The notes under the pieces are model-generated. The model was not told the origin of the DNA and did not search any database. It was given only the letters and a program-made list of their open reading frames with translations. Made by a program: the position numbers and the translations under genes. Below, in pieces: positions 29-44,876 of a stretch of DNA of 64,000 nucleotides (positions are counted from its first letter, which is position 1; each line of letters starts with the position of its first letter). Source of the stretch: Conexivisphaerales archaeon (GTDB lineage: Archaea > Thermoproteota > Nitrososphaeria > Conexivisphaerales > DTJL01); assembly GCA_038728585.1 (NCBI GenBank), contig JAVYTR010000007.1:25680-89679 (forward strand), written 5' to 3'.

Positions 29-604
29 ATGAATGCTGATGGTCGAGCTGTAGCAAAGTCAAGAAGGATCGGTCTGACTGGTTCACCAAAGACAGGGAAG
101 ACTGAAATAGGAAGAGGTCTGGCAAAGGCATTGAATCTACCGTTTTACGACCTGAACTCCATATGCATAACAAAAAGACTGGGCAGGTTTCAGGGCGACG
201 AGTTCGTTGTCGACGTAAAGAGGGCAAGAGATACAATATCTTCGATTTTAAAGGGAAAATCAGGGTATGTTGTATCAGGGCTCCTGCTACCTGACCTGGT
301 AAAAAGTACTCTCCTTGATTCAGTAATTGTCCTCAGATGCAATCCAAAGGTTCTCTTCTCAAGGTATATGCAATCAGGATACAGCATGGAAAAGGCAAAG
401 GAGAATGTAGTATCAGAAGCGATAGGCGTTGTCTACTCTGAGGCTCTTGATACGTTCGGAAGGAAGGTAATACAGCTTGATATTACCAGCATGAGCCTAG
501 ACGATGCGGTTGAAGCTATTGTGAAAGGAGATTTCAAAAAGCAGGAGATAGACTGGCTGTCTGAGGCTGAAAAAGATGAATCTCTTCTAAGACTTCTTCT
601 GTAA
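29..604 (+). CDS. putative AK6/Fap7-type nucleoside (adenylate) kinase
   Basis: 191 aa. P-loop GSPKTGKT lies near the N-terminus. Size and layout match small archaeal NMP-kinase-like proteins (COG1936-like). The 3' end overlaps the convergent HerA-like gene by 18 nt. Confidence 0.5.
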   Translation: MNADGRAVAKSRRIGLTGSPKTGKTEIGRGLAKALNLPFYDLNSICITKRLGRFQGDEFVVDVKRARDTISSILKGKSGYVVSGLLLPDLVKSTLLDSVIVLRCNPKVLFSRYMQSGYSMEKAKENVVSEAIGVVYSEALDTFGRKVIQLDITSMSLDDAVEAIVKGDFKKQEIDWLSEAEKDESLLRLLL

Positions 605-2203
605 AACAGATAGCAATTCTTCATCAGGAACGACCTTTGCCAGAACAGAGCTCTTCATCTTTGCTACGTTGATTATCGCGTATCCAGTCTGAAGCTGAGA
701 CATGTATTTAGCCTGAGCCTCTGTAAGGTTCATGGCATCGCCTAGAACCTTGATATCTGAATTCCACGATACTCTGTGCACTATTCTTACCCCTGTATTC
801 TTGAGCACTTCAGGGGATATCTGTGAAGGGAATTGAGCTATATACACAACAGATTCGCCGAATTTCCTCATATCCTGTGAAAGCCTTTCAGAGACAGCAA
901 CAGGCTCCTCAGGCTTTCTGACGGGGACAAGGTTCCTGGCTTCTTCTATAATGATAGCATGCCTCAGCCCTGACTTCTCTCCTCCCAGTCTGTAATCGTG
1001 TATGGCTTTAAGGAGAAAGCTTGAGAATAAAGTCCTTGTTTCGAATTCCCTGAAGTAACCTAGCTCTATCACGGTTGGCTTGCTTAGCAACTCCTTCAAG
1101 TCAACAGAGCTCCTTCCGCAGAGTGCCCTGCCCGCCTGTCCCTCGGTAAGGGGTGCGAGTCTCCTAACAAGAGCCATCTTGGTTTCGTTGTCGAACTGGC
1201 TCCTTATCGGGGAACCATCTATCATCTGCAGCAGGCCTGACAGGTCTCTGTTGAGACCTGAAAGGTGCGCCTCAGTGCTGAGCAGGGCTATGATAGAGTT
1301 TCTGAACATGTACGACTGAGGACTTGTGAAGTGATATATATCGCAGAATATGTCAGATACTATTGCAGCATGTTCAGCAAGGCTTGAAGCACCTATGTCT
1401 TCCAGAGGGTTGAGAGTGAACTCTCCTCTTCCTGGGGCTTCAACAGAACCCCCGATTGACCTGACGAAATCACCATATTCGTTATGAATATCGAGCACAA
1501 GGAAAGGTATACCCCTTTCATTCAGCCTCTTCGCAAGAGTCATTGCTGTTGTAGTCTTTCCCGAGCCTGTCATGCCTAGAATGCATACATGCTTCGAAAG
1601 GTCTTCATCTTCAAGGTAAAGGTGCTGTCTTGGCTCCTCGTTTACGATGATTCTTGCTATGGGTATCCCGCTGGCTGTATTTTCATTCTCTGAAGGTATA
1701 TGGAACTGGGGGGTAGGTGGGGTTATGTTGCTTGAGCTTTCAAAGCTTATCAGCTGCTCCAGCTCCTCAGGTTCAACTTTACGCCTGAACCTAGAAGGTG
1801 GCGAGAGCACAAGGTCAATTACCTTTGCAGCTTTTCCCTTTGCAAGTCTCTTCAAATTGCAATCGGGCATTGCCACAGTAACAGCTGTGGCTATTACTCT
1901 CATCTGCTGTTCAAGCAGGGCCTGTGCTTCTGCAAGGGATGTGTCTTTGCATTCCGCCCAGCTCCCTATGAAGGTAGAATACTCAAAGTAGTTCTTCTCT
2001 ACTGGCTTTGCGACTACGAAGTAAATAATCGGTGTATTTGTCCTGTATAGACCGGAGAGCACGGACGAGATCCCGGCTTGGGGTTTTGACAATCTTTCCC
2101 TGAACTGAACCTTATCTGATTCCGGTTTAGGAAGATAAAGTTCGAAAAAGGAGTGAAGAAGGAGCCTTGACCCATCTCTAGCAATTATAGTGCCATCCTT
2201 CAT
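587..2203 (-). CDS. HerA/FtsK-superfamily (DUF87-like) P-loop ATPase, last gene of the pilus operon
   Basis: 538 aa. Walker A is GMTGSGKTT, followed by VLDIHNEYG (HerA-type D-x-H-G-E-Y block). Walker B is AIIIEEA, with a C-terminal AQFPSQISPEVL block. No TM helix. The first ~200 aa do not look like a HAS barrel. Starts 55 nt downstream of the pilin gene on the same strand. Confidence 0.75.
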   Translation of the reverse strand: MKDGTIIARDGSRLLLHSFFELYLPKPESDKVQFRERLSKPQAGISSVLSGLYRTNTPIIYFVVAKPVEKNYFEYSTFIGSWAECKDTSLAEAQALLEQQMRVIATAVTVAMPDCNLKRLAKGKAAKVIDLVLSPPSRFRRKVEPEELEQLISFESSSNITPPTPQFHIPSENENTASGIPIARIIVNEEPRQHLYLEDEDLSKHVCILGMTGSGKTTTAMTLAKRLNERGIPFLVLDIHNEYGDFVRSIGGSVEAPGRGEFTLNPLEDIGASSLAEHAAIVSDIFCDIYHFTSPQSYMFRNSIIALLSTEAHLSGLNRDLSGLLQMIDGSPIRSQFDNETKMALVRRLAPLTEGQAGRALCGRSSVDLKELLSKPTVIELGYFREFETRTLFSSFLLKAIHDYRLGGEKSGLRHAIIIEEARNLVPVRKPEEPVAVSERLSQDMRKFGESVVYIAQFPSQISPEVLKNTGVRIVHRVSWNSDIKVLGDAMNLTEAQAKYMSQLQTGYAIINVAKMKSSVLAKVVPDEELLSVLQKKS

Positions 2204-2257
2204 TATATCGACTAGTGCTTCTTTCTTTGCGAAGGGCCATATCCTCAGAGAGGTCGC

Positions 2258-2452
2258 CTACCAGTGCCACAGGAATCCAAACAGGTTGTTGAGGGAATTT
2301 GTTATGTCTGTCCACACTGTGGATGTTAACCCACCAGCTTTGGTCAGGACCCCCTGTATCCCTGCAACTATCAGCGAAAGTGTTACAACCGCAACTATCA
2401 GAAGTATGGCTTCCTCAACAAGCTGAACTCCTCTTCTATCCATCATCATCAC
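2258..2452 (-). CDS. type IV pilin-like protein with class III signal peptide (Flp/Epd-like)
   Basis: 64 aa. SD-like AGGTG sits directly before a run of four ATG codons. The N-terminus RRGVQLVEEAILLIVAVVTLSLIV fits the archaeal Q-x-S-x-E-x-x-x-L class III signal motif and is followed by a single hydrophobic helix. Confidence 0.6.
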   Translation of the reverse strand: MMMMDRRGVQLVEEAILLIVAVVTLSLIVAGIQGVLTKAGGLTSTVWTDITNSLNNLFGFLWHW

Positions 2453-2492
2453 CTAAGATAGAGATTGCAGCGTTTTTAACGGCACAACATAC

Positions 2493-3107
2493 TCACGCAA
2501 TGAAAACCGTTACCAGAAGGGAAGAGAAGAAATACACACCTGCAGAGGCTGACAGAAAGGAAAGTAGAGATTTAATGCTCGAATGCTCCATCCCGAAGAA
2601 CGATGCCCCAGCTATAAGCATCAGACCGAGCAGGACTGGTGCCTGCTGGCTTGAGCCATGCTGAAACAGAAAGACACCAATTTTCTCGAGGACAGGAGCT
2701 ATCGCTGCTGTGATAAGGCAGATCAGAGCAGACCTCATCTTTATTGCACTTCTGATTTCCTGTATTTCTATCAGCATCTGGTTAAGCATAGAGTTGACTT
2801 CGTTGTAGGCTGAGACAGCATCTCTTGCTGAAGATATAGACACCTCCCTGCTCTTGACTGCAAGTTCCAAGGCAAGGTCATCGTAACTCATCTCTTCGGG
2901 TCTGTAACCGCGAAGAAGGTAATGTCTCATTTTGGCAGGCACTCCATCAGTAGCTAAAAGCGAGTATGCGGATGAAAGACCGACCTGTATCTTTGCAATC
3001 ACTTCCTTTTCCCAGGTATCCCTCTTCTCCTTCTTTCTGGAGGTTAGAACCAAGACCATGCTCAATGCAAAACAGGTAGCTGCAGCTGCTGCCAGGTACC
3101 AGCTCAA
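2493..3107 (-). CDS. T2SSF-domain (TadC/FlaJ-like) pilus platform membrane protein, short form
   Basis: 204 aa. One N-terminal TM helix, a cytoplasmic helical domain, then 2-3 C-terminal TM helices. The TTG start overlaps the upstream stop (TTGA). Lies directly downstream of the secretion ATPase and the first platform gene. Confidence 0.5.
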   Translation of the reverse strand: MSWYLAAAAATCFALSMVLVLTSRKKEKRDTWEKEVIAKIQVGLSSAYSLLATDGVPAKMRHYLLRGYRPEEMSYDDLALELAVKSREVSISSARDAVSAYNEVNSMLNQMLIEIQEIRSAIKMRSALICLITAAIAPVLEKIGVFLFQHGSSQQAPVLLGLMLIAGASFFGMEHSSIKSLLSFLSASAGVYFFSSLLVTVFIA

Positions 3108-3679
3108 ATTCTCTTCACCAGTATCATTCTAGCCAGCCAGAGGCAGAGCGAATAGTCAAGAGCCAAGTAAAACTGACCTGCAATATCAGTAAAGTCCCTT
3201 TCTGCGAAGATTAGAAGCATTATCGGGACGAAAAAAGAGATCGCCTGAAGCAGGCTCAGCCTGGTTTCTATCGATGCCCTGTAGCTGCTCAAGAATCTCC
3301 TTCTCTGTTCTGATGCTGAAAGGGCTATCTCTTGACCTGATGGGGCAGATCCCTTCATGTACATCCTGTCCTCACCTTTTACAGGAAGACCCCTTAACAG
3401 GTTGGAGAGGCTTAGCTCATCTTCTTTTTTCTTCAGCAGCAGATACCTTTCCAGCAATACTCTGTGCCTTGACCTTGTCATGATAGCTACTGTCCAGTCG
3501 AGGATTCCTGACATCATAGCTTCTACAGTATCTTCTTCCTTCACCGACCTCTTTACTCTAATCCCCAAAAGGAAAAGCATGTAAGCTAAACTCAGCAATA
3601 TTATGCTAACCCCTTCACCGTTGCTGAATATGAGCGGCAGGGGCAGGAATGGTAATGCGAAGTAAGATTTATCCTTCAT
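3104..3679 (-). CDS. T2SSF-domain (TadB/FlaJ-like) pilus platform membrane protein, short form
   Basis: Likely start is ATG at 3679 (MKDKSYFAL...), overlapping the ATPase stop by 11 nt; the ORF track extends to 3763. Architecture is TM helices, a cytoplasmic helical region, then C-terminal TM helices. Confidence 0.5.
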   Translation of the reverse strand: MKDKSYFALPFLPLPLIFSNGEGVSIILLSLAYMLFLLGIRVKRSVKEEDTVEAMMSGILDWTVAIMTRSRHRVLLERYLLLKKKEDELSLSNLLRGLPVKGEDRMYMKGSAPSGQEIALSASEQRRRFLSSYRASIETRLSLLQAISFFVPIMLLIFAERDFTDIAGQFYLALDYSLCLWLARMILVKRI

Positions 3680-5189
3680 CTGAACAGACCTTCTTCCAGA
3701 CAAGGTTTGCAAATGCGCTGACATCGTATGCGTCTTTTTCCATTGCTGTGAGAAGCAGGTCAACCATCTTTACCCTTAGAGCATTGAAGTTGTGGTCTGT
3801 CAGGTCTGTCGCTTTCTGCAGCAGTCTTTCACTGGGCTCCAGAGAACGAGTTATCTCAGCTCTGGATTCTTGCCTGCAATGGATATCTCTGACAGTCATA
3901 GATTCGTCAACTTCGCTTATTCTGTTAACAATTCTTGCAGAGCTCAGCTGGTCTGGTCTCTTCATTGTAACGATAAGCCCTATATCATTGAGCTGTTCAG
4001 GCCTGATCCCCATTACGTTCACCAGCCTTCTCACCGCCTGTTCAGGGGAGGAGGCGTGAAACGTCTGCAGACAGACTATTCCTGACTCAAGTGCCTGAAA
4101 AAGGGCAGAGCACTGCAGCCTGTCCTGAATCTCACCTAATATCACTATATCCGGACTTCTGTGCAGAGTCTTCAGCACTTCTTTCATCTTGCTTCTCTCC
4201 ACATCATCACCAGATTCAAGAGGCTGCACCCTGAGCTTTGTCTGCCTGTAGCCTAGCTCTGATAATTCCAGTGACTCTACCGCATCCTCAATGTAGATTC
4301 TTCTGAGCCTAGGGTCTATTGCAAGGTCTATAGCATTGAGCAAAGTTGTTTTACCTGAACCTGAAGGCCCCAGAATTGTGATGCTTATCCTGCTGTAAGC
4401 TGCAGCAAGAATAAGCGATGCAGCCTCCAAAGTCACCGCACCATCTCTGATCAGTTTTGGCAGTGTCAGCGCTTCGGCCCCTACCTTTCTCATATGTATG
4501 GAGGGACCGTTGACCGAGACGGGCTCCAGGTCAAGTCCTATTCTCACCTTGAATCTATCAAACATCAACTCCGACTTGACTGATGGCGTTTGGAGTGTAG
4601 CCTGCTGCTGACCGTATAGCTCTGCAAAAGTTCTGAGAGAATCCTGTTCTCTCTTTTGAAGCATGAAAGTCAGCTGACATCTTCCAACTCTCCTGTGCTC
4701 TACATATGGGTAAGAAAAGTTTGAATCAGAAAAGAACTCATCAACCGCCGGGTCTTCGAATACTGTGTAGAGTCTTCCAAGACCAATCCACTCATAAGCT
4801 GCATACCTTGCAATTGACTCTGTCCTGTCTTTTGCTCCTGCAAGGTAAGGTGAAACAAGACTCATGAACCACTTCATGTACTGCTCCAGATTGGATGGTA
4901 TCGTTTCAGGAACAGGATGCTCTGAGTCAAGCATGGCCAGCGACCTGCCCACAAGCTGTAAATCAGACGCTGTCCCGCAGAACTTTGAGGTGTAGTATCT
5001 CACTCCAGACGACGATGAATATATGGTGACGCTGAAGGGATTCACTTCATAACTATCTATAATTTCCTTTATTCCGTAAGGTAATAAATCCCCCGAATAT
5101 GCCAAGCGGTTATTTTGAATTCCGGTATCTGGTTTGTGTGTGCTTTCCTCGTGGCCTTTGCTTGTCAGTTTCCTGAAAATCTTCAGCAT
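3669..5189 (-). CDS. type IV filament secretion ATPase (TadA/FlaI/VirB11, T2SSE family)
   Basis: 506 aa. Walker A GPSGSGKTT, Asp-box region IYIEDAVE, Walker B DIVILGEIQD, His box QTFHASS. This is the typical GspE/FlaI-type ATPase layout. Confidence 0.85.
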   Translation of the reverse strand: MLKIFRKLTSKGHEESTHKPDTGIQNNRLAYSGDLLPYGIKEIIDSYEVNPFSVTIYSSSSGVRYYTSKFCGTASDLQLVGRSLAMLDSEHPVPETIPSNLEQYMKWFMSLVSPYLAGAKDRTESIARYAAYEWIGLGRLYTVFEDPAVDEFFSDSNFSYPYVEHRRVGRCQLTFMLQKREQDSLRTFAELYGQQQATLQTPSVKSELMFDRFKVRIGLDLEPVSVNGPSIHMRKVGAEALTLPKLIRDGAVTLEAASLILAAAYSRISITILGPSGSGKTTLLNAIDLAIDPRLRRIYIEDAVESLELSELGYRQTKLRVQPLESGDDVERSKMKEVLKTLHRSPDIVILGEIQDRLQCSALFQALESGIVCLQTFHASSPEQAVRRLVNVMGIRPEQLNDIGLIVTMKRPDQLSSARIVNRISEVDESMTVRDIHCRQESRAEITRSLEPSERLLQKATDLTDHNFNALRVKMVDLLLTAMEKDAYDVSAFANLVWKKVCSDEG

Positions 5190-5239
5190 CTGAAGATTAT
5201 TTTGAGCGTCCTAATATAGGCAAGAATTTTTTATTGTAG
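5190..5239. promoter_or_regulatory. 50-bp divergent promoter region between the pilus ATPase operon and the pilin-like operon
   Basis: The AT-rich spacer contains TATA-like cctaatatagg and ttttttattg between two divergently oriented start codons. Confidence 0.3.
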
Positions 5240-5623
5240 GTGCAAGGGAAGGTGCAGCTTGTAGCAAAGCTCCTCTGTTCCATTCCTGTCATACTTGCGA
5301 TAGCTCTGGCCTTCTCAAGCAGCGTGCAGACTGGCGTCAGAAAGGCTGAGGAGACTGCTTACCTGCACTCTGTAGTTTCTTCACTGGAAAAAGCAGTCTA
5401 CGACAGCATTATATCGGGCACGAATTCATCTGTGCTTATCTCTCCTCCTCAAGGCTATACGATCAGGCTTTCCTGCTCCAGCTCTATACTTTCAGTTTCG
5501 GTGAATGATGTCTGGACAACGGTTTCGCTGCCTGCAGATTGTAATACGTTTGCACATGATACAGCAACAGACCAGACAATCTTCGTGAACGTGACCTCAG
5601 ACATAATTTATTTTTCATGGTGA
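5240..5623 (+). CDS. pilin-like / pseudopilin-like secreted protein
   Basis: 127 aa with a GTG start. The N-terminus QGKVQLVAKLLCSIPVILAIALAF shares the VQLV-plus-hydrophobic-helix pattern with the 64-aa pilin. The rest is Ser/Thr-rich. Confidence 0.4.
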   Translation: MQGKVQLVAKLLCSIPVILAIALAFSSSVQTGVRKAEETAYLHSVVSSLEKAVYDSIISGTNSSVLISPPQGYTIRLSCSSSILSVSVNDVWTTVSLPADCNTFAHDTATDQTIFVNVTSDIIYFSW

Positions 5624-5627
5624 TAAC

Positions 5628-6005
5628 ATGTCATCAAAGATAGTTGAATTCAGTCTCTCTTCAGCCTTTCTCTATTTGCTCATGACTGTATGCAGCATAG
5701 GGATAGCTGGCTACTCGTACAACATTTTCAGCAGCTCCTATTCCGGAATTGCAACCTCCTGCCTCAATTCTGTCTCTTCAGTTCTTTCATACATTTCAAA
5801 CGGAGGATATGCCTATGTCAATCTTGATGACCTGCCCCCAGGAGCGAGTCTGAGCCTTCGGTCAGGTATATTGCAGTTAAATATTCCAGGCACTTCTGTT
5901 TACCTGCATATTCAGGGTCTTCAGGGGAATTTCAACATAACAGGTAGAGGTCTGTACAACTTTTCAGTAGAAGGAGGCATGGTAGAGGTGAGCCCAGTTG
6001 GATGA
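5628..6005 (+). CDS. pilin-like / pseudopilin-like protein
   Basis: 125 aa. The N-terminus SKIVEFSLSSAFLYLLMTVCSIGIAG resembles a TadE/Flp-type VEF-plus-hydrophobic-helix segment. Starts 4 nt after the previous gene. Confidence 0.4.
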   Translation: MSSKIVEFSLSSAFLYLLMTVCSIGIAGYSYNIFSSSYSGIATSCLNSVSSVLSYISNGGYAYVNLDDLPPGASLSLRSGILQLNIPGTSVYLHIQGLQGNFNITGRGLYNFSVEGGMVEVSPVG

Positions 6006-6102
6006 GTACATAGAGGCGACGTTTGCAGCTGCTATGCTCACTTTAGAGATGCTCCTTCTCTGGTTGAGCATCGACAAATTTCACCAGCTGGTGGGACCAT
6101 GA
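5998..6102 (+). CDS. candidate 34-aa hydrophobic micro-ORF (Flp-like?) missed by the ORF track
   Basis: The TTG start overlaps the stop of the upstream gene, and the stop overlaps the ATG of the next gene (ATGA). Sequence is LDEYIEATFAAAMLTLEMLLLWLSIDKFHQLVGP, containing one TM helix. Supported only by the coupling geometry. Confidence 0.2.
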   Translation: MDEYIEATFAAAMLTLEMLLLWLSIDKFHQLVGP

Positions 6103-6407
6103 TCAGACAGATTGATTCGCTGATCTCTCTGGCAGTCCTGTCAACTCTTCTGGCTCTGTCTATCTCTGCAGTATCCGGGGTCAGCCAGACAGTCAATTAC
6201 AGCAGCAGGCTGCTGAAGGCTTACACATCGCTCGGAAATCAAATTTCAGCCATACCTTTTACAGTCTTTGCCACATCTTCAGGCCTTCATTACAGCAGCT
6301 GCTACTTCACTCCTGGCAACGATAAGCCTGGGAGCTATGGCCTGCACTGGACCCTTGCACTCAGAGGAAATGTGGTGGTTTCAGCGTATTGCATGGTATA
6401 TCCATGA
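6099..6407 (+). CDS. pilin-like protein
   Basis: 102 aa. The N-terminus MIRQIDSLISLAVLSTLLALSISAV is a short polar leader followed by a hydrophobic helix. The rest is Ser/Thr/Gly-rich. Confidence 0.4.
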   Translation: MIRQIDSLISLAVLSTLLALSISAVSGVSQTVNYSSRLLKAYTSLGNQISAIPFTVFATSSGLHYSSCYFTPGNDKPGSYGLHWTLALRGNVVVSAYCMVYP

Positions 6408-7090
6408 CAATCTTTGCCTTTGCAACTGGAGTGATGGTGCTGCTTGCTTCATTGTATGGGGTGTGGCTTCTTCAAATGCAGGCCAGCATTAACTCTTCAT
6501 CGATACAGCTGGCTGAGGACAGGGCTTATGCCGAGGGCTTCTTGATCTCTATGATGTACGCCTGCATAAGTTCCGTCGATAATCTGCTATCAAGCTCAGG
6601 TAATTTTGAAGTCTCAGCCAACATCAGCAATGATATGCAGGGGTCATGCATTTCCGGAGTGAAAACGATGGTCTTTACATCACCTGTGGAAATAGGGCTG
6701 AGCAATTTTAGCATAGTCATATCAGCAAGCGGTGCTGATTCTGAGTTGCTCAGAATGCATGTGCTGATAAATGTTCATTCGTATTCTTCAGCATTTGAGT
6801 TGACAAAAGATGTAAGTGTAATATGTCCATATTCTATACTTCAGGCTCAGGTTGCAATTGCGAAACTTGAGCAAGGATTCGCATCCGGAGAAGAGTTTCC
6901 TCTGAACCAGACATTGCATTACCCCTACTGGACGATAACAGAAACATCATACATCAGGAACACAACGGTTCTATACAACTTAAGACTTGTTGGACAGCAG
7001 CAGCTTTGTGCAACTCAACCTGCGAATACGTATCAGATTTTTTCGTCCGGAGAGTTAGTAATCAATGAAACAAATTCTGTAGAGCAGTGA
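6389..7090 (+). CDS. large pilin-like / pilus-associated protein
   Basis: 233 aa with an N-terminal hydrophobic helix (TIFAFATGVMVLLASLYGVWLL). Overlaps the upstream gene by 19 nt. Last gene of the plus-strand pilin-like operon. Confidence 0.4.
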   Translation: MHGISMTIFAFATGVMVLLASLYGVWLLQMQASINSSSIQLAEDRAYAEGFLISMMYACISSVDNLLSSSGNFEVSANISNDMQGSCISGVKTMVFTSPVEIGLSNFSIVISASGADSELLRMHVLINVHSYSSAFELTKDVSVICPYSILQAQVAIAKLEQGFASGEEFPLNQTLHYPYWTITETSYIRNTTVLYNLRLVGQQQLCATQPANTYQIFSSGELVINETNSVEQ

Positions 7091-7129
7091 TTCCACAGGT
7101 CTGTACTATTGTACCATCACAACATGTCT

Positions 7130-8053
7130 CTAACTCAGATTGAGTATCTTTCTGAACTTAACTCCCTGCTCTCTCAGTGTGAACTTTGATATTTTCAAAA
7201 TGTCACAAAACTCTGTCTGCAGAAAGACCTTCTTTCTGTTTGCTGCTCTAGCCATTCTTGCCTCTGCAAGATAAACACAGGTAGCAGCTACCGAGACGGG
7301 GCTGTATCCTGATGTCGCTTGACCATTCAATCTCCCGGCAATAACCTTTGATTGATTGAGCAACTCTCTGTAGTAGGTCTCAGAACCGATATGCATCTCT
7401 CCAAGTCTGCGTCTTATCATTTCCTCGTTCAGCAGTCTCTTTATGAAAAGTTGAAGGTACAGCTCAGGTTCTATCCTCACCTTCTCCCTGCTGCTGAGAG
7501 ATACGCTTATCATATGCTTAAGCCTTATATTGTAACCCATGCCTTCCATGCAACTCTTTACACTCTTCCACGACTGAGCAACTCTGCAACTCCGGCAGGA
7601 GTTTATTATACAATAGGCAGCAAGAGCTGGTAGTGTACCTCTTTCGTGTGTAAACTGGCCCAGCATCCTGTATGCCATGTATTTTGCCATGTTGGATACT
7701 CTCTTAGGAAGGGTCAGATGCTCGCAGCACCTCTCTATCATCGAAGATACATACTCGAACGACCTGTAGAGCTTCCCCAGGTCATTATGGTCGGATGTCA
7801 TCTTCATGTATGAATAGGTTGATGCTCCAAACTCCAGCCCTCTACTATGAGAATTTCCAAACCTGGGTCCCAAATAGCTTCCCAGTCTGAACTCGTCAGG
7901 AAGTACAGCACTCTTGATGTCATACACTTCGTGCACAGACCTCTCAGACTCTCCAAATATCACACCGCAGCCTGAACAGACAAGTTCAGATTCTGTCGAA
8001 ACTATTCTTCCCCCGCAAAAGTTGCATTTTGTCTGAATTTCGTCTTTTATCAT
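7130..8053 (-). CDS. divergent transcription factor B (TFIIB) paralog
   Basis: Likely start is ATG 8053 (MIKDEIQTKCNFCGG...). It has a Zn ribbon CNFCGG..CSGCG and two degenerate cyclin-like repeats. The C-terminal block SPVSVAATCVYLAEA...FCDILKISKFTLREQ parallels the canonical TFB. It lacks the GPEWRAF / B-reader block seen in the TFB at 61777. Confidence 0.7.
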   Translation of the reverse strand: MIKDEIQTKCNFCGGRIVSTESELVCSGCGVIFGESERSVHEVYDIKSAVLPDEFRLGSYLGPRFGNSHSRGLEFGASTYSYMKMTSDHNDLGKLYRSFEYVSSMIERCCEHLTLPKRVSNMAKYMAYRMLGQFTHERGTLPALAAYCIINSCRSCRVAQSWKSVKSCMEGMGYNIRLKHMISVSLSSREKVRIEPELYLQLFIKRLLNEEMIRRRLGEMHIGSETYYRELLNQSKVIAGRLNGQATSGYSPVSVAATCVYLAEARMARAANRKKVFLQTEFCDILKISKFTLREQGVKFRKILNLS

Positions 8054-8239
8054 TGTGCAAGTGAAAGGATGAGGAGGGATATGTTCATCGTGTGACACAA
8101 AGATCTGAAACAAGGAGAAAGAAGTAACCTGCAACTTTGTACTTTCAAGCAGAGAGAGACTCTGAGACAAAAATAAAATTCTGTCAAGTTAATGGAAATC
8201 GTTTAATAACTTGATTCAGGAAACAACTGCAGAGAAACG

Positions 8240-8674
8240 ATGTCAACAGCACCGTCAAGAAAGTTCATAGAAGAGCTTGGGAGTCTCATCGGAAGGAAGG
8301 TTACAGTGGAAACTTCTGAAGGCAAGAAATACAAAGGAGTAGTTCTAGGTCTGCATGAGGACCTTTCGACAGTTCTTGGAGAGGTTGAAGGCGAAGAGGG
8401 AACTTACAAGGTGATAATAAACGGAAATTCTGTAAAGGAGATCAAGCTGATTGAAAGACCGTTCGACCTCAAGAGCCTGGCAGAGGCCATAAGCAGGGTC
8501 TTTCCAGGACTTGTTAAACTCAGGGAAGATATTGGGGCCATCATTGTGATGGATAAGATAAAGGTAACCGAAAGCGGCGTCGTGGAAGGTTCAGGTCCCA
8601 GCGGAGAGAAAGTCAGACAGATCTATGAAGAATACGTGAAGAGTTTGAAAAAGGTACCAGCAGCTCAGCAGTGA
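8240..8674 (+). CDS. Sm-like (LSm) RNA-binding protein with C-terminal extension
   Basis: 144 aa. Sm1-like segment GRKVTVETSEGKKYKGVVLGLHEDLSTVL and Sm2-like segment INGNSVKEIKLI, followed by an extra domain of about 65 aa. Confidence 0.5.
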   Translation: MSTAPSRKFIEELGSLIGRKVTVETSEGKKYKGVVLGLHEDLSTVLGEVEGEEGTYKVIINGNSVKEIKLIERPFDLKSLAEAISRVFPGLVKLREDIGAIIVMDKIKVTESGVVEGSGPSGEKVRQIYEEYVKSLKKVPAAQQ

Positions 8675-42484: not shown

Positions 42485-43072
42485 ATGGTAAACAAAAGGA
42501 AGTTAGCTGGTCTGCTTCTCTTTATCGGTGTTCTGCAGTTTCTGTTCAGTTTGATGCTGGCTGAATTCCTTTACCCAGATTATAGTGTATCGCAGAATTA
42601 CATTAGCGACCTCGGAGCTACCTGCAGAACGATCTGTCAGGTCTATCAGCCCTCTTCAACGATTTTCAACTCATCACTTGTCCTGACTGGAATATTTGTT
42701 GTTGCAGCTGGCTATTTCTACTGGTTATCAGGCGGAGCCAGAAGCAGACTGCTGACAGCACTTCTTTACGTTGCTGGTGTATCTGCTGCGGGAGTAGGTC
42801 TTTTCCCTGAAACTACCGGAATATTGCACAGCATTTTCTCCATAATAGTCTTCTTCAGCATGGCATTCGCCGCAATTGCTTCCTTCAGGGTGACAAAGCA
42901 GCCCCTCAGCACTTTGTCCTTGCTCTTAGGCCTGATGACCCTGGTTTTCATCTTTCTGTATGTGGGAAAGGTTTACCTTGGCCTTGGGGCAGGAGGGGCT
43001 GAAAGGTTCATAGTGTATCCTGTATTATTCTGGGCTTTATCTTTCTCAGGCTATCTCATGTCCTCTGAATGA
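42485..43072 (+). CDS. DUF998-like polytopic membrane protein
   Basis: 195 aa with six hydrophobic helices. The N-terminal LMLAEFLYPDYSVSQNYISDLG pattern is reminiscent of DUF998. Confidence 0.4.
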   Translation: MVNKRKLAGLLLFIGVLQFLFSLMLAEFLYPDYSVSQNYISDLGATCRTICQVYQPSSTIFNSSLVLTGIFVVAAGYFYWLSGGARSRLLTALLYVAGVSAAGVGLFPETTGILHSIFSIIVFFSMAFAAIASFRVTKQPLSTLSLLLGLMTLVFIFLYVGKVYLGLGAGGAERFIVYPVLFWALSFSGYLMSSE

Positions 43073-43124: not shown

Positions 43125-44876
43125 TTGAGTTCTTTGGCATCTGCTGAGCCGTGGTATTTTGACGATATGCAAGGCAAATTTCAGGCCAGGCTGAAAGGGG
43201 TAAGAACAGAAACCAAGTCTGCAATGGATGGGAATTTTGAGGGGACAAGTATAGTTGCAACTCTTGAAGCAAAGTTCGATATGGAAGTGTTTGACAGGCT
43301 ACATGACCCTACATTCATTGCGATAGAAAGGGAGACGAGCAAGGGACCAATAAACCTTGTATACGAAGTGACCTCGGTTCAGCCAATGCACTTTCAGATG
43401 CTCGGAGTCACTTCAAGCATACCCCAGCAGATAAGGGAGGAATTTCTTGAGAGGGTCAGCAAAAGCTGGAACGGCAGCCAGGAGACTTGGATTGACCTGG
43501 CAGCATTCCACACAGGATACAAGATGTTCTTTGAAGGAAACGAACTGAAGTTTGAAAGGACAAAGTTGACCCCACTGCAGGGCTCCGTAGCTCATCTGCT
43601 TTCAAAGAGGGCAGTTGAAAGTCTGATATGCGTTGAGAACGGAATGGAGCTCGGCAGGGTGAAGGGGCTGGATATAGAGCTGGCTGTCGATGAATCATCT
43701 CTTGTCAAGTATCACATGGGCGTTTTTGGATTCACAGGGACTGGCAAGTCAAACCTCACTTCGCTGCTCGTCAGAAAACTGATGGAGAGAGATAGCAGGC
43801 TGAAGGTCTGTTTTCTCGATGTCTCCGGAGAATACTCCGTGAACCTGATAGACAAGCTTGACTACTGCAGCATTTACTCAGCTGAAGAATTTGATGGAGT
43901 AGATGGTTTTGCCCAATCCCAGGTTATACCTGATACCCTAGCATCTTTTCCTGGGATTGAAGAAAGGATAAGGAGCAGGTTTGAAACTATGAACAGAGAG
44001 GGAAGACTAAAGAGATTGGCTGTTTCGGAGCAATTCAGCCAGGTCAGCCTTGATAGTATTTATGAAGTGCTTGAAAGAATATCGTCTGAGGGGAAGACTG
44101 GCTCTCTTTCTGTCGAAAACACTCTTAGGTCTTTGCAGCATTACTTCATGAAGAAAGGTATACCTTCATCAAGGCTTCTCAGCGAGGTTGATGAAGAGAA
44201 TAAGAATCATCTAAAAACAGAGCTTGAGTCTCTAAAGGGAAAGCTGCACGAAAAGTCTGGTGCTCTGAAAGATGTTGAGGCTCTCCTCGAAATGATCAAC
44301 AACATTCCTGAAGGCGAAAGCCCTGATATCGATACGCCTGAGACTCTAGCACACAAGTTTCTCAGCGGAGAGCAAAGGATGCTGATAATGTATCTGCCAG
44401 AGCCTTACCTGGCTCAGCAAGTTGCAGCAAGGTTCCTGAACAGACTGCTCTACCTGAAGAAGATACGTGGAAGAAGAGAAAATGTACTTGTGGTTCTAGA
44501 CGAAGCTCAGGAATTCGCCGCAAAGGAGCCAAAGGGCACTCAAACAGATTCTAACAGGGCTGTTGAAGCCCTTTTGAGGCAGGGGAGAAAGTATGGCGCA
44601 TCAGCCCTGATAAGCACACAGAGAGTTGCTTACATAAACGTAAATGCTCTGCAGCAGCTTCACAGCTACTTCGTCAGCACTCTTCCCAGAGTTTACGACA
44701 GGATGGTGATAGCTGACTCCTTCAGCCTTGACCTTGGTGTGCTGCAGAAGACCACAGAGCTTCAGACAGGAGAATGGCTCTTTGTCAGCTACAAGGCGAC
44801 AAAGCAGAAGAACGTTCCTGTCTTTTTGACAGCTCAGAATAACGAAGACATTGTCAGGAGCTACCTGTCAGGCTGA
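43125..44876 (+). CDS. herA: HerA-family hexameric ATPase/helicase (HAS barrel + FtsK-like ATPase)
   Basis: 583 aa. N-terminal barrel-like region, Walker A GFTGTGKSN, FLDVSGEYS block, long helical insert, Walker B VVLDEAQEF, then LISTQRVAYINVNAL. SD AGGAG lies upstream of the TTG start. Confidence 0.75.
   Translation: MSSLASAEPWYFDDMQGKFQARLKGVRTETKSAMDGNFEGTSIVATLEAKFDMEVFDRLHDPTFIAIERETSKGPINLVYEVTSVQPMHFQMLGVTSSIPQQIREEFLERVSKSWNGSQETWIDLAAFHTGYKMFFEGNELKFERTKLTPLQGSVAHLLSKRAVESLICVENGMELGRVKGLDIELAVDESSLVKYHMGVFGFTGTGKSNLTSLLVRKLMERDSRLKVCFLDVSGEYSVNLIDKLDYCSIYSAEEFDGVDGFAQSQVIPDTLASFPGIEERIRSRFETMNREGRLKRLAVSEQFSQVSLDSIYEVLERISSEGKTGSLSVENTLRSLQHYFMKKGIPSSRLLSEVDEENKNHLKTELESLKGKLHEKSGALKDVEALLEMINNIPEGESPDIDTPETLAHKFLSGEQRMLIMYLPEPYLAQQVAARFLNRLLYLKKIRGRRENVLVVLDEAQEFAAKEPKGTQTDSNRAVEALLRQGRKYGASALISTQRVAYINVNALQQLHSYFVSTLPRVYDRMVIADSFSLDLGVLQKTTELQTGEWLFVSYKATKQKNVPVFLTAQNNEDIVRSYLSG

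Follow-up and report, generated by a model that had tools for sequence, protein, structure and literature searches.

The stretch of DNA considered here (the window) comprises 64,000 nucleotides (nt) of contig JAVYTR010000007.1 (positions 25,680-89,679, assembly GCA_038728585.1) from a Conexivisphaerales archaeon, the Conexivisphaerales being an order within the phylum Nitrososphaerota. Positions 587-8170 of the window are one conserved chromosomal module of Thermoproteota/TACK archaea (Thaumarchaeota, Aigarchaeota, Crenarchaeota, Korarchaeota), in which the genes of a Tad-like pilus have been found together with the gene of an ATPase related to CedD and with a paralogue of the transcription factor TFB. 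With moderate confidence, we have read this combination as a pilus-coupled apparatus for the uptake or exchange of DNA. The reading draws on the gene order in related loci, on the family assignment of the ATPase and on a chromosomal position that the module has in common with CedD.

Sulfolobales cannot import DNA without CedD (Saci_0667; SiRe_1715), a member of the TFB3-dependent ultraviolet regulon (PMC11823120, PMC11868833). CedD has been named only in 2025, and how Ced, the Ups pili and TFB3 came to cooperate is unexplained so far. The family is reported from Sulfolobales, Desulfurococcales and Acidilobales, to which Wu et al. add Thermofilales, and the 2025 papers on CedD mention neither Nitrososphaerota nor a link to a pilus operon (PMC11823120, PMC11868833). 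In the literature searched, no description of CedD relatives outside Crenarchaeota has been found, and no gene-transfer apparatus has surfaced for the Nitrososphaerales and Nitrosopumilales lineages of Nitrososphaerota. The accessory genes that Makarova et al. (2016) list for archaeal type IV pili comprise KaiC, MoxR, vWA, TFIIB and others, with no HerA-clade ATPase among them (PMC4858521). A recent census preprint repeats this picture, and HerA, CedD and VirB4 are absent from its text (Sivabalasarma and Albers, 2026), while four types of type IV pili have been described in ammonia oxidisers with HerA families listed under repair only (Abby et al., 2020). An earlier reading of this DNA from its letters alone (the original prediction) had known of no described archaeal type IV pilus operon with an embedded HerA-type motor. 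Likewise, no described type IV pilus operon with an embedded CedD- or HerA-type motor has been found in the literature searched.

Each part of the module belongs to a known kind. The novelty lies in the constant way in which they are combined, in the range of lineages that have the combination and in the link by position to tfb3-cedD. Genes for a type IV pilus, a CedD-type motor and a TFB paralogue stand side by side in one chromosomal slot in Nitrososphaerota, Brockarchaeota and other Thermoproteota, which suggests a widespread, undescribed pilus-linked DNA-uptake machine across several archaeal lineages. If this is true, the DNA-damage exchange system of Sulfolobus would gain an evolutionary origin, the puzzling 'subsystem 4D' of other archaea would be reinterpreted, and a concrete DNA-uptake apparatus would be predicted in environmentally dominant archaea, with Nitrososphaerota gaining a pilus-dependent route for the uptake of chromosomal DNA.

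The original prediction had been built on five co-oriented minus-strand genes at 587-5189, and all five are present there in the list of open reading frames (ORFs). Of the junctions it had described, the 11-nt overlap, the TTGA overlap and the 40-nt gap (2453-2492) have been recovered as such; the gap given as 55 nt is actually 54 nt long (2204-2257). The module is wider than had been noted, as four pilin-like genes (5240-7090) and the TFB paralogue (7130-8170) have to be added. Its genes are the following.

587-2203, minus strand: soluble CedD-related ATPase of the HerA/VirB4 clade, 538 residues (Pfam DUF87/HerA central domain 1e-16; HerA_C match; NCBIfam CedD)
2258-2452, minus strand: Flp-like major prepilin, 64 residues, with a predicted class III signal peptide (MMMMDRRG/VQLVEEAILL..., Glu at +5), one hydrophobic helix and a short amphipathic C-terminus
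2493-3107, minus strand: divergent single-domain T2SSF (TadB/TadC-like) platform protein, 204 residues, assigned by profile methods; its start overlaps the preceding stop as TTGA
3104-3679, minus strand: second small membrane protein, 191 residues; the ATG that gives the 11-nt overlap has been chosen, the longest ORF running from 3763
3669-5189, minus strand: type IV filament assembly ATPase of the T2SSE family, 506 residues (Pfam PF00437 4e-23; GPSGSGKTT, DIVILGEIQD)
5240-5623, plus strand: pilin-like protein, 127 residues, candidate minor pilin (MQG/KVQLVAKLL...; orthologues in the same place in loci L003 and L006; shared N-terminal G-x-QLV motif)
5628-6005, plus strand: pilin-like protein, 125 residues, with an N-terminal hydrophobic helix and a conserved acidic residue (..IVEF..); orthologues begin MVEVLEY.. 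or ..AELVEY..
6099-6407, plus strand: pilin-like protein, 102 residues (..RQIDSLISLAVL..; ..RQID..), judged by comparison of orthologue N-termini
6389-7090, plus strand: pilin-like protein, 233 residues (MHG/ISMTIFAFATG..; an orthologue begins MRRG/VTLTLFALATG..)
7130-8170, minus strand: divergent TFB (TFIIB) paralogue, candidate dedicated regulator (Pfam TFIIB 6.3e-11 in two stretches; weak Zn ribbon, cyclin repeats), whose true start is probably the ATG at 8053

Gene order and chromosomal position

The gene arrangement is far beyond chance, because the same order is kept in 17 of 17 related loci with enough flank, which have been drawn, among the matches listed, from metagenome-assembled genomes (MAGs) of Nitrososphaerota, Brockarchaeota and other Thermoproteota. 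The matches listed by the contig scan for relatives include few Nitrososphaerota and no Sulfolobales loci; the Sulfolobales gene order used below is that of published locus tags. The conserved order runs from a TFB-like gene over four to six divergent small genes with hydrophobic N-termini, the T2SSE gene, two membrane genes, a pilin gene of about 65 codons and the ATPase gene to a convergent AAA_18 kinase gene. The TFB-like gene is found in most of these loci and is absent or undetected in at least L056. The linkage on which the original prediction depended has held up, in that each of the relatives examined, even those at 34-36% identity and in other phyla, has the orthologue of the ATPase in synteny with pilus genes. 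A chance adjacency of the ATPase gene and the pilus operon has been rejected on the same ground, the adjacency being conserved across phyla.

The pilin and ATPase genes have also been found without a separator between them. Read from the sequence, the 54-nt gap contains no T-run terminator and no TATA-like box at a useful distance, and in the relatives the two genes lie 0-7 nt apart or overlap. TATA-like elements occur in two other spacers of the module.

2453-2492, minus strand: 40-nt spacer with TATA-like TTAAAAA (2473-2479), about 24 nt upstream of the pilin start
5190-5239, between divergent genes: 50-nt intergenic region with TATA-like TAATATA (5212-5218), about 25-26 nt from both divergent start codons

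The first element may act as a promoter inside the operon, serving the pilin and ATPase genes, and the second may be a shared promoter of two leaderless transcripts; the spacing of the divergent region is not kept in L003.

The module is bordered by two genes that lie outside the machine and serve as positional anchors.

29-604, plus strand: Fap7/adenylate-kinase-like AAA_18 kinase (AAA_18 1.9e-12; PRK03839 1e-23)
8240-8674, plus strand: SmAP/Lsm protein with an Lsm_C domain (Lsm_C 4.4e-19)

The kinase gene is convergent with the ATPase gene and overlaps it tail to tail by 18 nt (587-604), and similar overlaps have been seen in L003 (11642-11662) and L057 (10642-10683). It holds the same place in the relatives and adjoins CedD in L024, L028 and L034. 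Likewise, the Lsm_C gene flanks the module in Conexivisphaerales relatives and in Brockarchaeota, and flanks CedD in Desulfurococcales. The loci of Desulfurococcales and Ignisphaera carry Lsm_C, Rpo8 (Pfam RpbG 3e-32), CedD, and AAA_18 and/or thermosome genes; those of the Brockarchaeota type (L005, L056) carry the ATPase, AAA_18 and thermosome genes; and in a korarchaeal locus Rpo8 is followed by a TFB-like gene for a 250-residue Zn-ribbon protein and by a CedD-like ATPase with transmembrane helices. In Sulfolobales, consecutive tags belong to tfb3 (saci_0665/SiRe_1717), thermosome beta (saci_0666/SiRe_1716) and cedD (saci_0667/SiRe_1715) (PMC5817253, PMC6061795, PMC4569737, PMC10465181, PMC11823120, PMC11868833). 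The neighbourhood is thus the same for both ATPases, with Lsm_C/Rpo8 on one side, the Fap7-like kinase/thermosome on the other and a TFB paralogue near. Because the Lsm_C, AAA_18 and thermosome anchors are common to both, and because the pilus-linked orthologue of locus L013 aligns along the whole CedD model, we have read the ATPase of the window as the positional counterpart of CedD, located here within a pilus operon.

Downstream of the module in L005, L056 and L057, genes for thermosome, histone, ribosomal protein S17e and a Urm1/ThiS-like protein recur. A Urm1-thermosome linkage has been reported for S. acidocaldarius (PMC4569737), and since the downstream genes of the three loci echo it, they suggest that the CedD position lies within an ancient, conserved block of the chromosome. 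As for the flanks of the module, the same housekeeping genes (Lsm_C, Fap7-like kinase, thermosome, fumarase) have been met in distant lineages, which implies that the module is vertically inherited. Furthermore, the guanine-cytosine (GC) content is flat across the window at about 0.46-0.49, and PADLOC has given only weak matches on the window, to HerA and mad8. With its uniform GC content, its housekeeping flanks and only these weak matches, the locus does not look mobile or defensive.

The CedD-related ATPase

The 538-residue protein consists of an alpha/beta N-domain (residues 1 to about 150), a linker and an ATPase domain (176-526). Walker A (GMTGSGKTT, K216), Walker B (IIIEEA, E420/E421) and the VLDIHNEYG motif are intact. 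Among 112 members of the family, K216, E420/E421 and many further positions do not vary. Because of these invariant catalytic residues, the enzyme is likely active. The HerA hallmarks that the original prediction had recognised next to an N-terminus other than a HAS barrel are present, and the N-terminal 190 residues have been modelled as an alpha/beta fold (AlphaFold2, Foldseek). A protein of a Conexivisphaerales MAG is 100% identical to it, and full-length homologues of 34-77% identity occur in MAGs with the labels Conexivisphaerales, Nitrososphaerales, Nitrososphaerota, Nitrosopumilales and Bathyarchaeia. In Brockarchaeota and other Thermoproteota, versions have been found that are about 675 residues long and have N-terminal hydrophobic helices, and Korarchaeota orthologues also have such helices; the Nitrososphaerota members of the family are without a transmembrane domain.

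The best NCBIfam family of the protein is CedD ('DNA-translocating ATPase CedD', NF053655), with an expectation value (E) of 1.8e-51 and 175.5 bits over residues 193-524 (model positions 211-525). The runner-up families follow at a distance, namely crenarchaeal repair HerA at 54.9 bits, anti-phage HerA at 44.5, VirB4 at 37.7 and CedB at 14, and the same ranking has been obtained for nine relatives, with CedD at 154-193 bits. In profile-profile alignment with hhalign, the family matches Desulfurococcales CedD with 100% probability and E 5.4e-44 over residues 176-526, an alignment that ends at the ATPase domain and leaves the N-domain outside. The likeness to CedD thus extends over about 330 residues of the ATPase domain, in which the blocks DxHNEY/DWHGEY, ETK.ALLRRL.PL, ELRKFGE and KN.G.RI.H are common to both. 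In the pilus-linked L013 orthologue, from a Thermoproteota MAG, the whole CedD model is aligned (positions 5-526 of 527, 211 bits). CedD itself is built of a transmembrane domain, an N-domain and a HerA/VirB4-like ATPase (PMC11823120, PMC11868833), and the pilus-locus orthologues of Brockarchaeota and Korarchaeota keep all three, i.e., transmembrane segment, N-domain and ATPase.

The AlphaFold2 model of the 538-residue protein is of high confidence (predicted local distance difference test, pLDDT, 90.4). Foldseek searches with the full model, which are dominated by the ATPase domain and do not separate HerA from VirB4, have returned S. solfataricus HerA (4d2i, E 1e-19) as the best match and the VirB4 C-terminal domain with a template modelling (TM) score of 0.75 and a root-mean-square deviation (rmsd) of 4.5 A. 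Together with the Pfam matches to DUF87/HerA_C and the weak PADLOC matches to HerA and mad8, this top structural match could favour a repair or anti-phage HerA helicase that merely happens to be encoded beside a pilus operon. We consider that very improbable. The protein has no HAS barrel, its scores on the HerA equivalog models are 40-55 bits where the cutoffs lie at 800-970, and no HerA/NurA-type partner (nurA/mre11/rad50) has been detected in the locus or in the flanks retrieved with it, the neighbours being pilus genes and the Fap7-like kinase. The original prediction had named a repair HerA that pairs with NurA as what would overturn it, and the protein does not have that identity. In addition, the adjacency to pilus genes is kept across phyla, and the window has another gene of a generic HerA-like kind at 43125-44876.

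How close the protein stands to CedD has been approached by a neighbour-joining tree of the ATPase domain and by hidden Markov models (HMMs). In the tree, the pilus-linked family is monophyletic in 97 of 100 bootstraps and Desulfurococcales CedD in 100 of 100. With the CedD HMM, the pilus-linked family scores 126-186 bits, above every bacterial relative (59-107 bits), and five sampled proteins of the bacterial group reach 37-83 bits on the NCBIfam CedD model trained on Sulfolobales. As the tree leaves the relation to CedD open, it has been read from the ranking of HMM scores and from gene position. Taken alone, the sequence comparison supports placing both in the same subclade, with CedD as the closest characterised member, and orthology rests on gene position. 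The bacterial group is an observation in its own right: among the matches listed, loci L021, L025, L029, L030 and L033 come from Actinobacteria, Clostridia and Anaerolineae and encode proteins of 890-1080 residues. At 108-167 bits, the C-terminal ATPase domain of these proteins comes about as close to the pilus-linked archaeal family as CedD does. The best or second-best NCBIfam family of this group is the uncharacterised 'serine-rich protein' NF033849, and no T2SSE gene has been found by phmmer within 10 kb of these five loci.

Several results weigh against the reading of the module as a DNA-uptake apparatus with a CedD-type motor. The match to the CedD model covers the ATPase domain only, and its 175.5 bits do not reach the curated equivalog cutoff of 600. 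The Desulfurococcales and Ignisphaera proteins at the CedD position, which are often aligned near full length, likewise remain below 600 with 208-299 bits; since even the Desulfurococcales proteins reach no more than this, the CedD model seems to be tuned to Sulfolobales. In the tree, a clade of the pilus-linked family with Desulfurococcales CedD has been recovered in just 11 of 100 bootstraps, the bacterial group of 890-1080 residues joining the family instead, and with an HMM of that bacterial group the pilus-linked family scores 108-167 bits and CedD 69-103. The N-domain of about 150 residues, with the order beta-beta-alpha-beta-beta-alpha-beta-alpha in the AlphaFold2 model, has a pLDDT of 78 when modelled alone, and Foldseek has returned nothing with E below 1e-3 for it, neither a HAS barrel nor a VirB4 N-domain. 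The CedD N-domain is reported to superpose on part of the VirB4 N-domain (Wu et al., 2025), and in the hhalign comparison the N-domain of the window protein did not align with that of CedD. Unlike CedD, the 538-residue protein has no transmembrane or hydrophobic segment, beta strands being modelled from residue 2 onwards. Neither a CedA-/VirB6-like channel nor CedB has been found in the locus or in the 64-kb window, and the pilins of the window are unrelated to Ups pilins. A further difference lies in gene context, in which the ATPase gene of the window is the last of a pilus operon and cedD is a stand-alone gene.

Two observations concern the 5' end of ATPase genes of this family. In the window, a short frame begins at an out-of-frame ATG near 2242 (2204-2245, minus strand; MALRKERSTSRYN...), and dropping 4 nt around the start of the 538-residue protein (..aat/gaag/gat ggc..) would join this frame to that of the ATPase as ..YNDGT.., which is similar to ..FNDGT.. 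in a relative of 76% identity. The 5' part of the gene may thus contain a frameshift or an assembly error, by which some 13-15 N-terminal residues would be cut off and the unusual 54-nt gap would be made. In L056 (8135-10551), the ATPase of 516 residues is without the N-domain and has a C-terminal extension of about 100 residues, and an ORF of 299 codons overlaps its start; this ATPase may be a split or frameshifted version.

Filament motor, platform and pilins

The other ATPase of the operon, of 506 residues, likewise has intact catalytic motifs and is of the archaeal GspE/FlaI/CpaF type and not of the VirB11 type. On NCBIfam models it scores 74 bits for FlaI, 64 for TadA and 46 for VirB11, and its closest solved relatives by sequence in the PDB are Archaeoglobus afGspE (2oap), CpaF, the Tad ATPase, and FlaI, with VirB11 not among them. 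This assignment bears on the possibility of an integrated conjugative or other mobile element with a type IV secretion-like transfer system, the core of which would superficially be resembled by a VirB11-family ATPase, a VirB4-like ATPase and a small pilin. Such an element is hardly credible here, as the T2SSE ATPase is of the FlaI/CpaF/GspE type and the platform is of the T2SSF rather than the VirB6 kind, while the VirB4 match of the second ATPase stays at 37.7 bits against a cutoff of 643. Moreover, no mobile-element genes have been noted beside the locus, its GC content is uniform, and the same housekeeping flanks recur in distant lineages.

The two small membrane proteins have been more difficult to assign. 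Their genes overlap by 4 nt, an overlap kept in relatives. Neither protein is matched by Pfam or NCBIfam, searches of the PDB with sequence profiles from both alignments have given only noise, and hhalign of the 191- against the 204-residue protein aligns merely a 23-column motif. A word-indexed search with the 204-residue protein has yielded 2 matches and a profile of 8 sequences 12, none of which carries a Pfam domain. A profile built from this protein and the few homologues that could be detected has then been run by exhaustive HMMER against 1.84 billion representative proteins, where 49 proteins matched. Of ten weaker matches scanned, six carry Pfam T2SSF, and the matched stretch falls on that domain; four of these proteins have about 290-320 residues and score 54-79 bits, and two are shorter and score 30-36 bits. 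Aligned by hhalign to the T2SSF set, the 204-residue set reaches 99% probability with E 5.8e-18 over 183 columns, a score that is somewhat inflated by the fact that the comparison set has been drawn from the protein's own matches, with the margin still large. For the 191-residue protein, the corresponding values are 74%, E 2.8e-5 and 68 columns, and the topology is the same in the alignment. The original prediction, in which both proteins were T2SSF-like, is accordingly borne out for one of them: the prediction of a divergent T2SSF platform is supported for the 204-residue protein, and it is suggestive for the 191-residue protein as a second T2SSF half. If both are single-domain T2SSF proteins, the layout would therefore be that of a TadB/TadC pair.

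The 64-residue protein is a predicted prepilin with a class III signal peptide as in Flp pilins, as originally proposed. In an alignment of 15 orthologues, the motif [RK][GA]/xQL[IVLF]EE has been found with Q, L, E and E invariant, preceded by a basic leader and followed by a hydrophobic helix. Together with the four divergent pilin-like proteins, the predicted filament set would consist of one major pilin and four candidate minor pilins. Pfam and NCBIfam have given nothing usable for any of the five, and none of the locus genes has been identified as a prepilin peptidase (PibD/FlaK/EppA).

One major and four minor pilin-like proteins mirror the pseudopili of type II secretion systems (T2SS) and of Com systems. 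The locus might thus encode a Tad- or T2SS-like pseudopilus secretion device for the export or import of another macromolecule, in which the HerA-clade ATPase would unfold or feed the substrate and the novel N-domain could serve as a substrate adaptor. We regard this as improbable, however, since the locus contains no conserved candidate substrate gene and the HerA/FtsK/VirB4 relatives of the ATPase are annotated as DNA translocases, DNA-repair helicases and conjugation ATPases.

Mechanism and relation to known systems

In the original prediction, the second motor was supposed to couple a pilus to the transfer of DNA or protein. Synteny, the non-HerA identity of the motor and the lack of a separator all favour such a coupling, and family ranking and gene position narrow the motor down to a CedD-related one. 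Within the preferred reading as a DNA-uptake or exchange apparatus, the T2SSE motor and the platform would build a short pilus of the Flp type, for cell contact or for the capture of DNA. The second ATPase is presumably, as its HerA/VirB4 relatives are, a ring translocase and would dock at the cytoplasmic face of the machine, by its own transmembrane helices in Brockarchaeota and Korarchaeota and via partner proteins in Nitrososphaerota. By analogy with Sulfolobus, where CedD is required for this step, it could then carry DNA through the membrane where the machine is based, and the TFB paralogue may be the switch of the module, in the way that ups and ced are switched on by TFB3. So built, the apparatus would probably be the ancestral form, with its genes still together, of what in Sulfolobales is spread out as tfb3, ups and cedD.

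A different role for the second ATPase would be that of a motor in pilus biogenesis or dynamics, extracting or retracting the Flp-like pilin in a two-motor pilus for adhesion or aggregation. For VirB4 of bacterial type IV secretion systems, a role in dislodging the VirB2 pilin has been proposed, and a VirB4/HerA-like fold is what has been found here. The tight binding of the ATPase gene to the pilin gene in all relatives fits this role as well, as does a locus in which no gene for a DNA channel, a nuclease or a DNA-binding protein is present. Archaea moreover encode no PilT (Makarova et al., PMC4858521). Even so, we hold this role to be unlikely, if worth serious consideration: among characterised relatives the nearest is CedD, which DNA import requires and aggregation does not, the type IV filament systems studied so far assemble with the T2SSE ATPase alone, and the VirB4 family itself is matched only weakly (38 bits).

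The uptake apparatus proposed here can be set beside several known systems. With Tad/Flp and archaeal type IV pili (Epd, Aap, Ups), the module has in common a T2SSE ATPase nearest to afGspE/CpaF/FlaI and several minor pilins. Further shared features are the two single-domain T2SSF proteins, like TadB/TadC (suggestive for the 191-residue one), and the very short pilin with a Flp-like G/xxxxE motif. In contrast to Tad, the locus is without secretin or outer-membrane parts, which is expected in archaea, and its platform is too divergent for Pfam. The fixed HerA-clade ATPase in the operon is undescribed in Tad and archaeal type IV filament systems; a type IV filament machine would gain in it a constant accessory motor, a kind of component that current archaeal censuses do not list. 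With VirB4/TrbE and TedB/CedB, the ATPase shares its fold, but the sequence matches to VirB4 and CedB are weak (38 and 14 bits) and no similarity to the VirB4 N-domain has been detected. The locus also differs from conjugative, Ted and Ced systems in that genes for VirB2/TedC, VirB6/CedA and a coupling protein are missing from it.

In the Com pseudopilus of Gram-positive bacteria, one major and four minor pilins capture DNA, and a separate cytoplasmic ATPase pulls it in. That ATPase, ComFA, is a DEAD-box-type helicase and not a HerA/VirB4-type ATPase. The comparison with Com, ComFA and ComEC is therefore one of analogy only, and ComEC and ComEA are without counterparts in the module.

A pilin-less 'subsystem 4D' has been described from Pyrobaculum and Thermoproteus, where TFIIB and RPB8 accompany a T2SSE ATPase and a membrane protein (PMC4858521); it has been interpreted as a remnant put to another use (PMC4858521; Sivabalasarma and Albers, 2026 preprint). 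Compared by its published description, it resembles the module in combining T2SSE and platform with a TFIIB homologue near Rpo8. Its landmarks are met again in the loci considered here, with a TFB-like gene beside the module and Rpo8 beside CedD in Desulfurococcales and Korarchaeota. It has no pilins and no HerA-type ATPase, whereas the module of the window is complete, having five pilin-like genes and a CedD-like motor. One may tentatively go a step further and suppose that the TFB paralogue, the Tad-like pilus and the CedD-like ATPase represent an ancestral, vertically inherited DNA-uptake or exchange machine of TACK archaea, of which tfb3/ups/ced of Sulfolobales would be the dispersed descendant and 'subsystem 4D' of Thermoproteales the remnant. 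We consider this evolutionary scenario possible rather than probable.

Elsewhere in the window, no transfer RNA (tRNA) genes (ARAGORN) and no Rfam families at gathering threshold have been found in the whole 64 kb. The second DUF87/HerA-type ATPase (43125-44876, plus strand, 583 residues) lies directly 3' of a gene for a DUF998 membrane protein (42485-43072, plus strand). It has no CedB match, is very distant from the 538-residue protein, and has no nuclease partner among the neighbours scanned. Only generic or anti-phage HerA models match it, and weakly (PADLOC 'HerA Type III coevolved' at 95 bits, NCBIfam all at or below 57 bits). The ORFs sampled in the window are mostly housekeeping or metabolic genes, such as those for fumarase, GMP synthase, tRNA-guanine transglycosylase, the succinate dehydrogenase flavoprotein and phosphoglycerate mutase.

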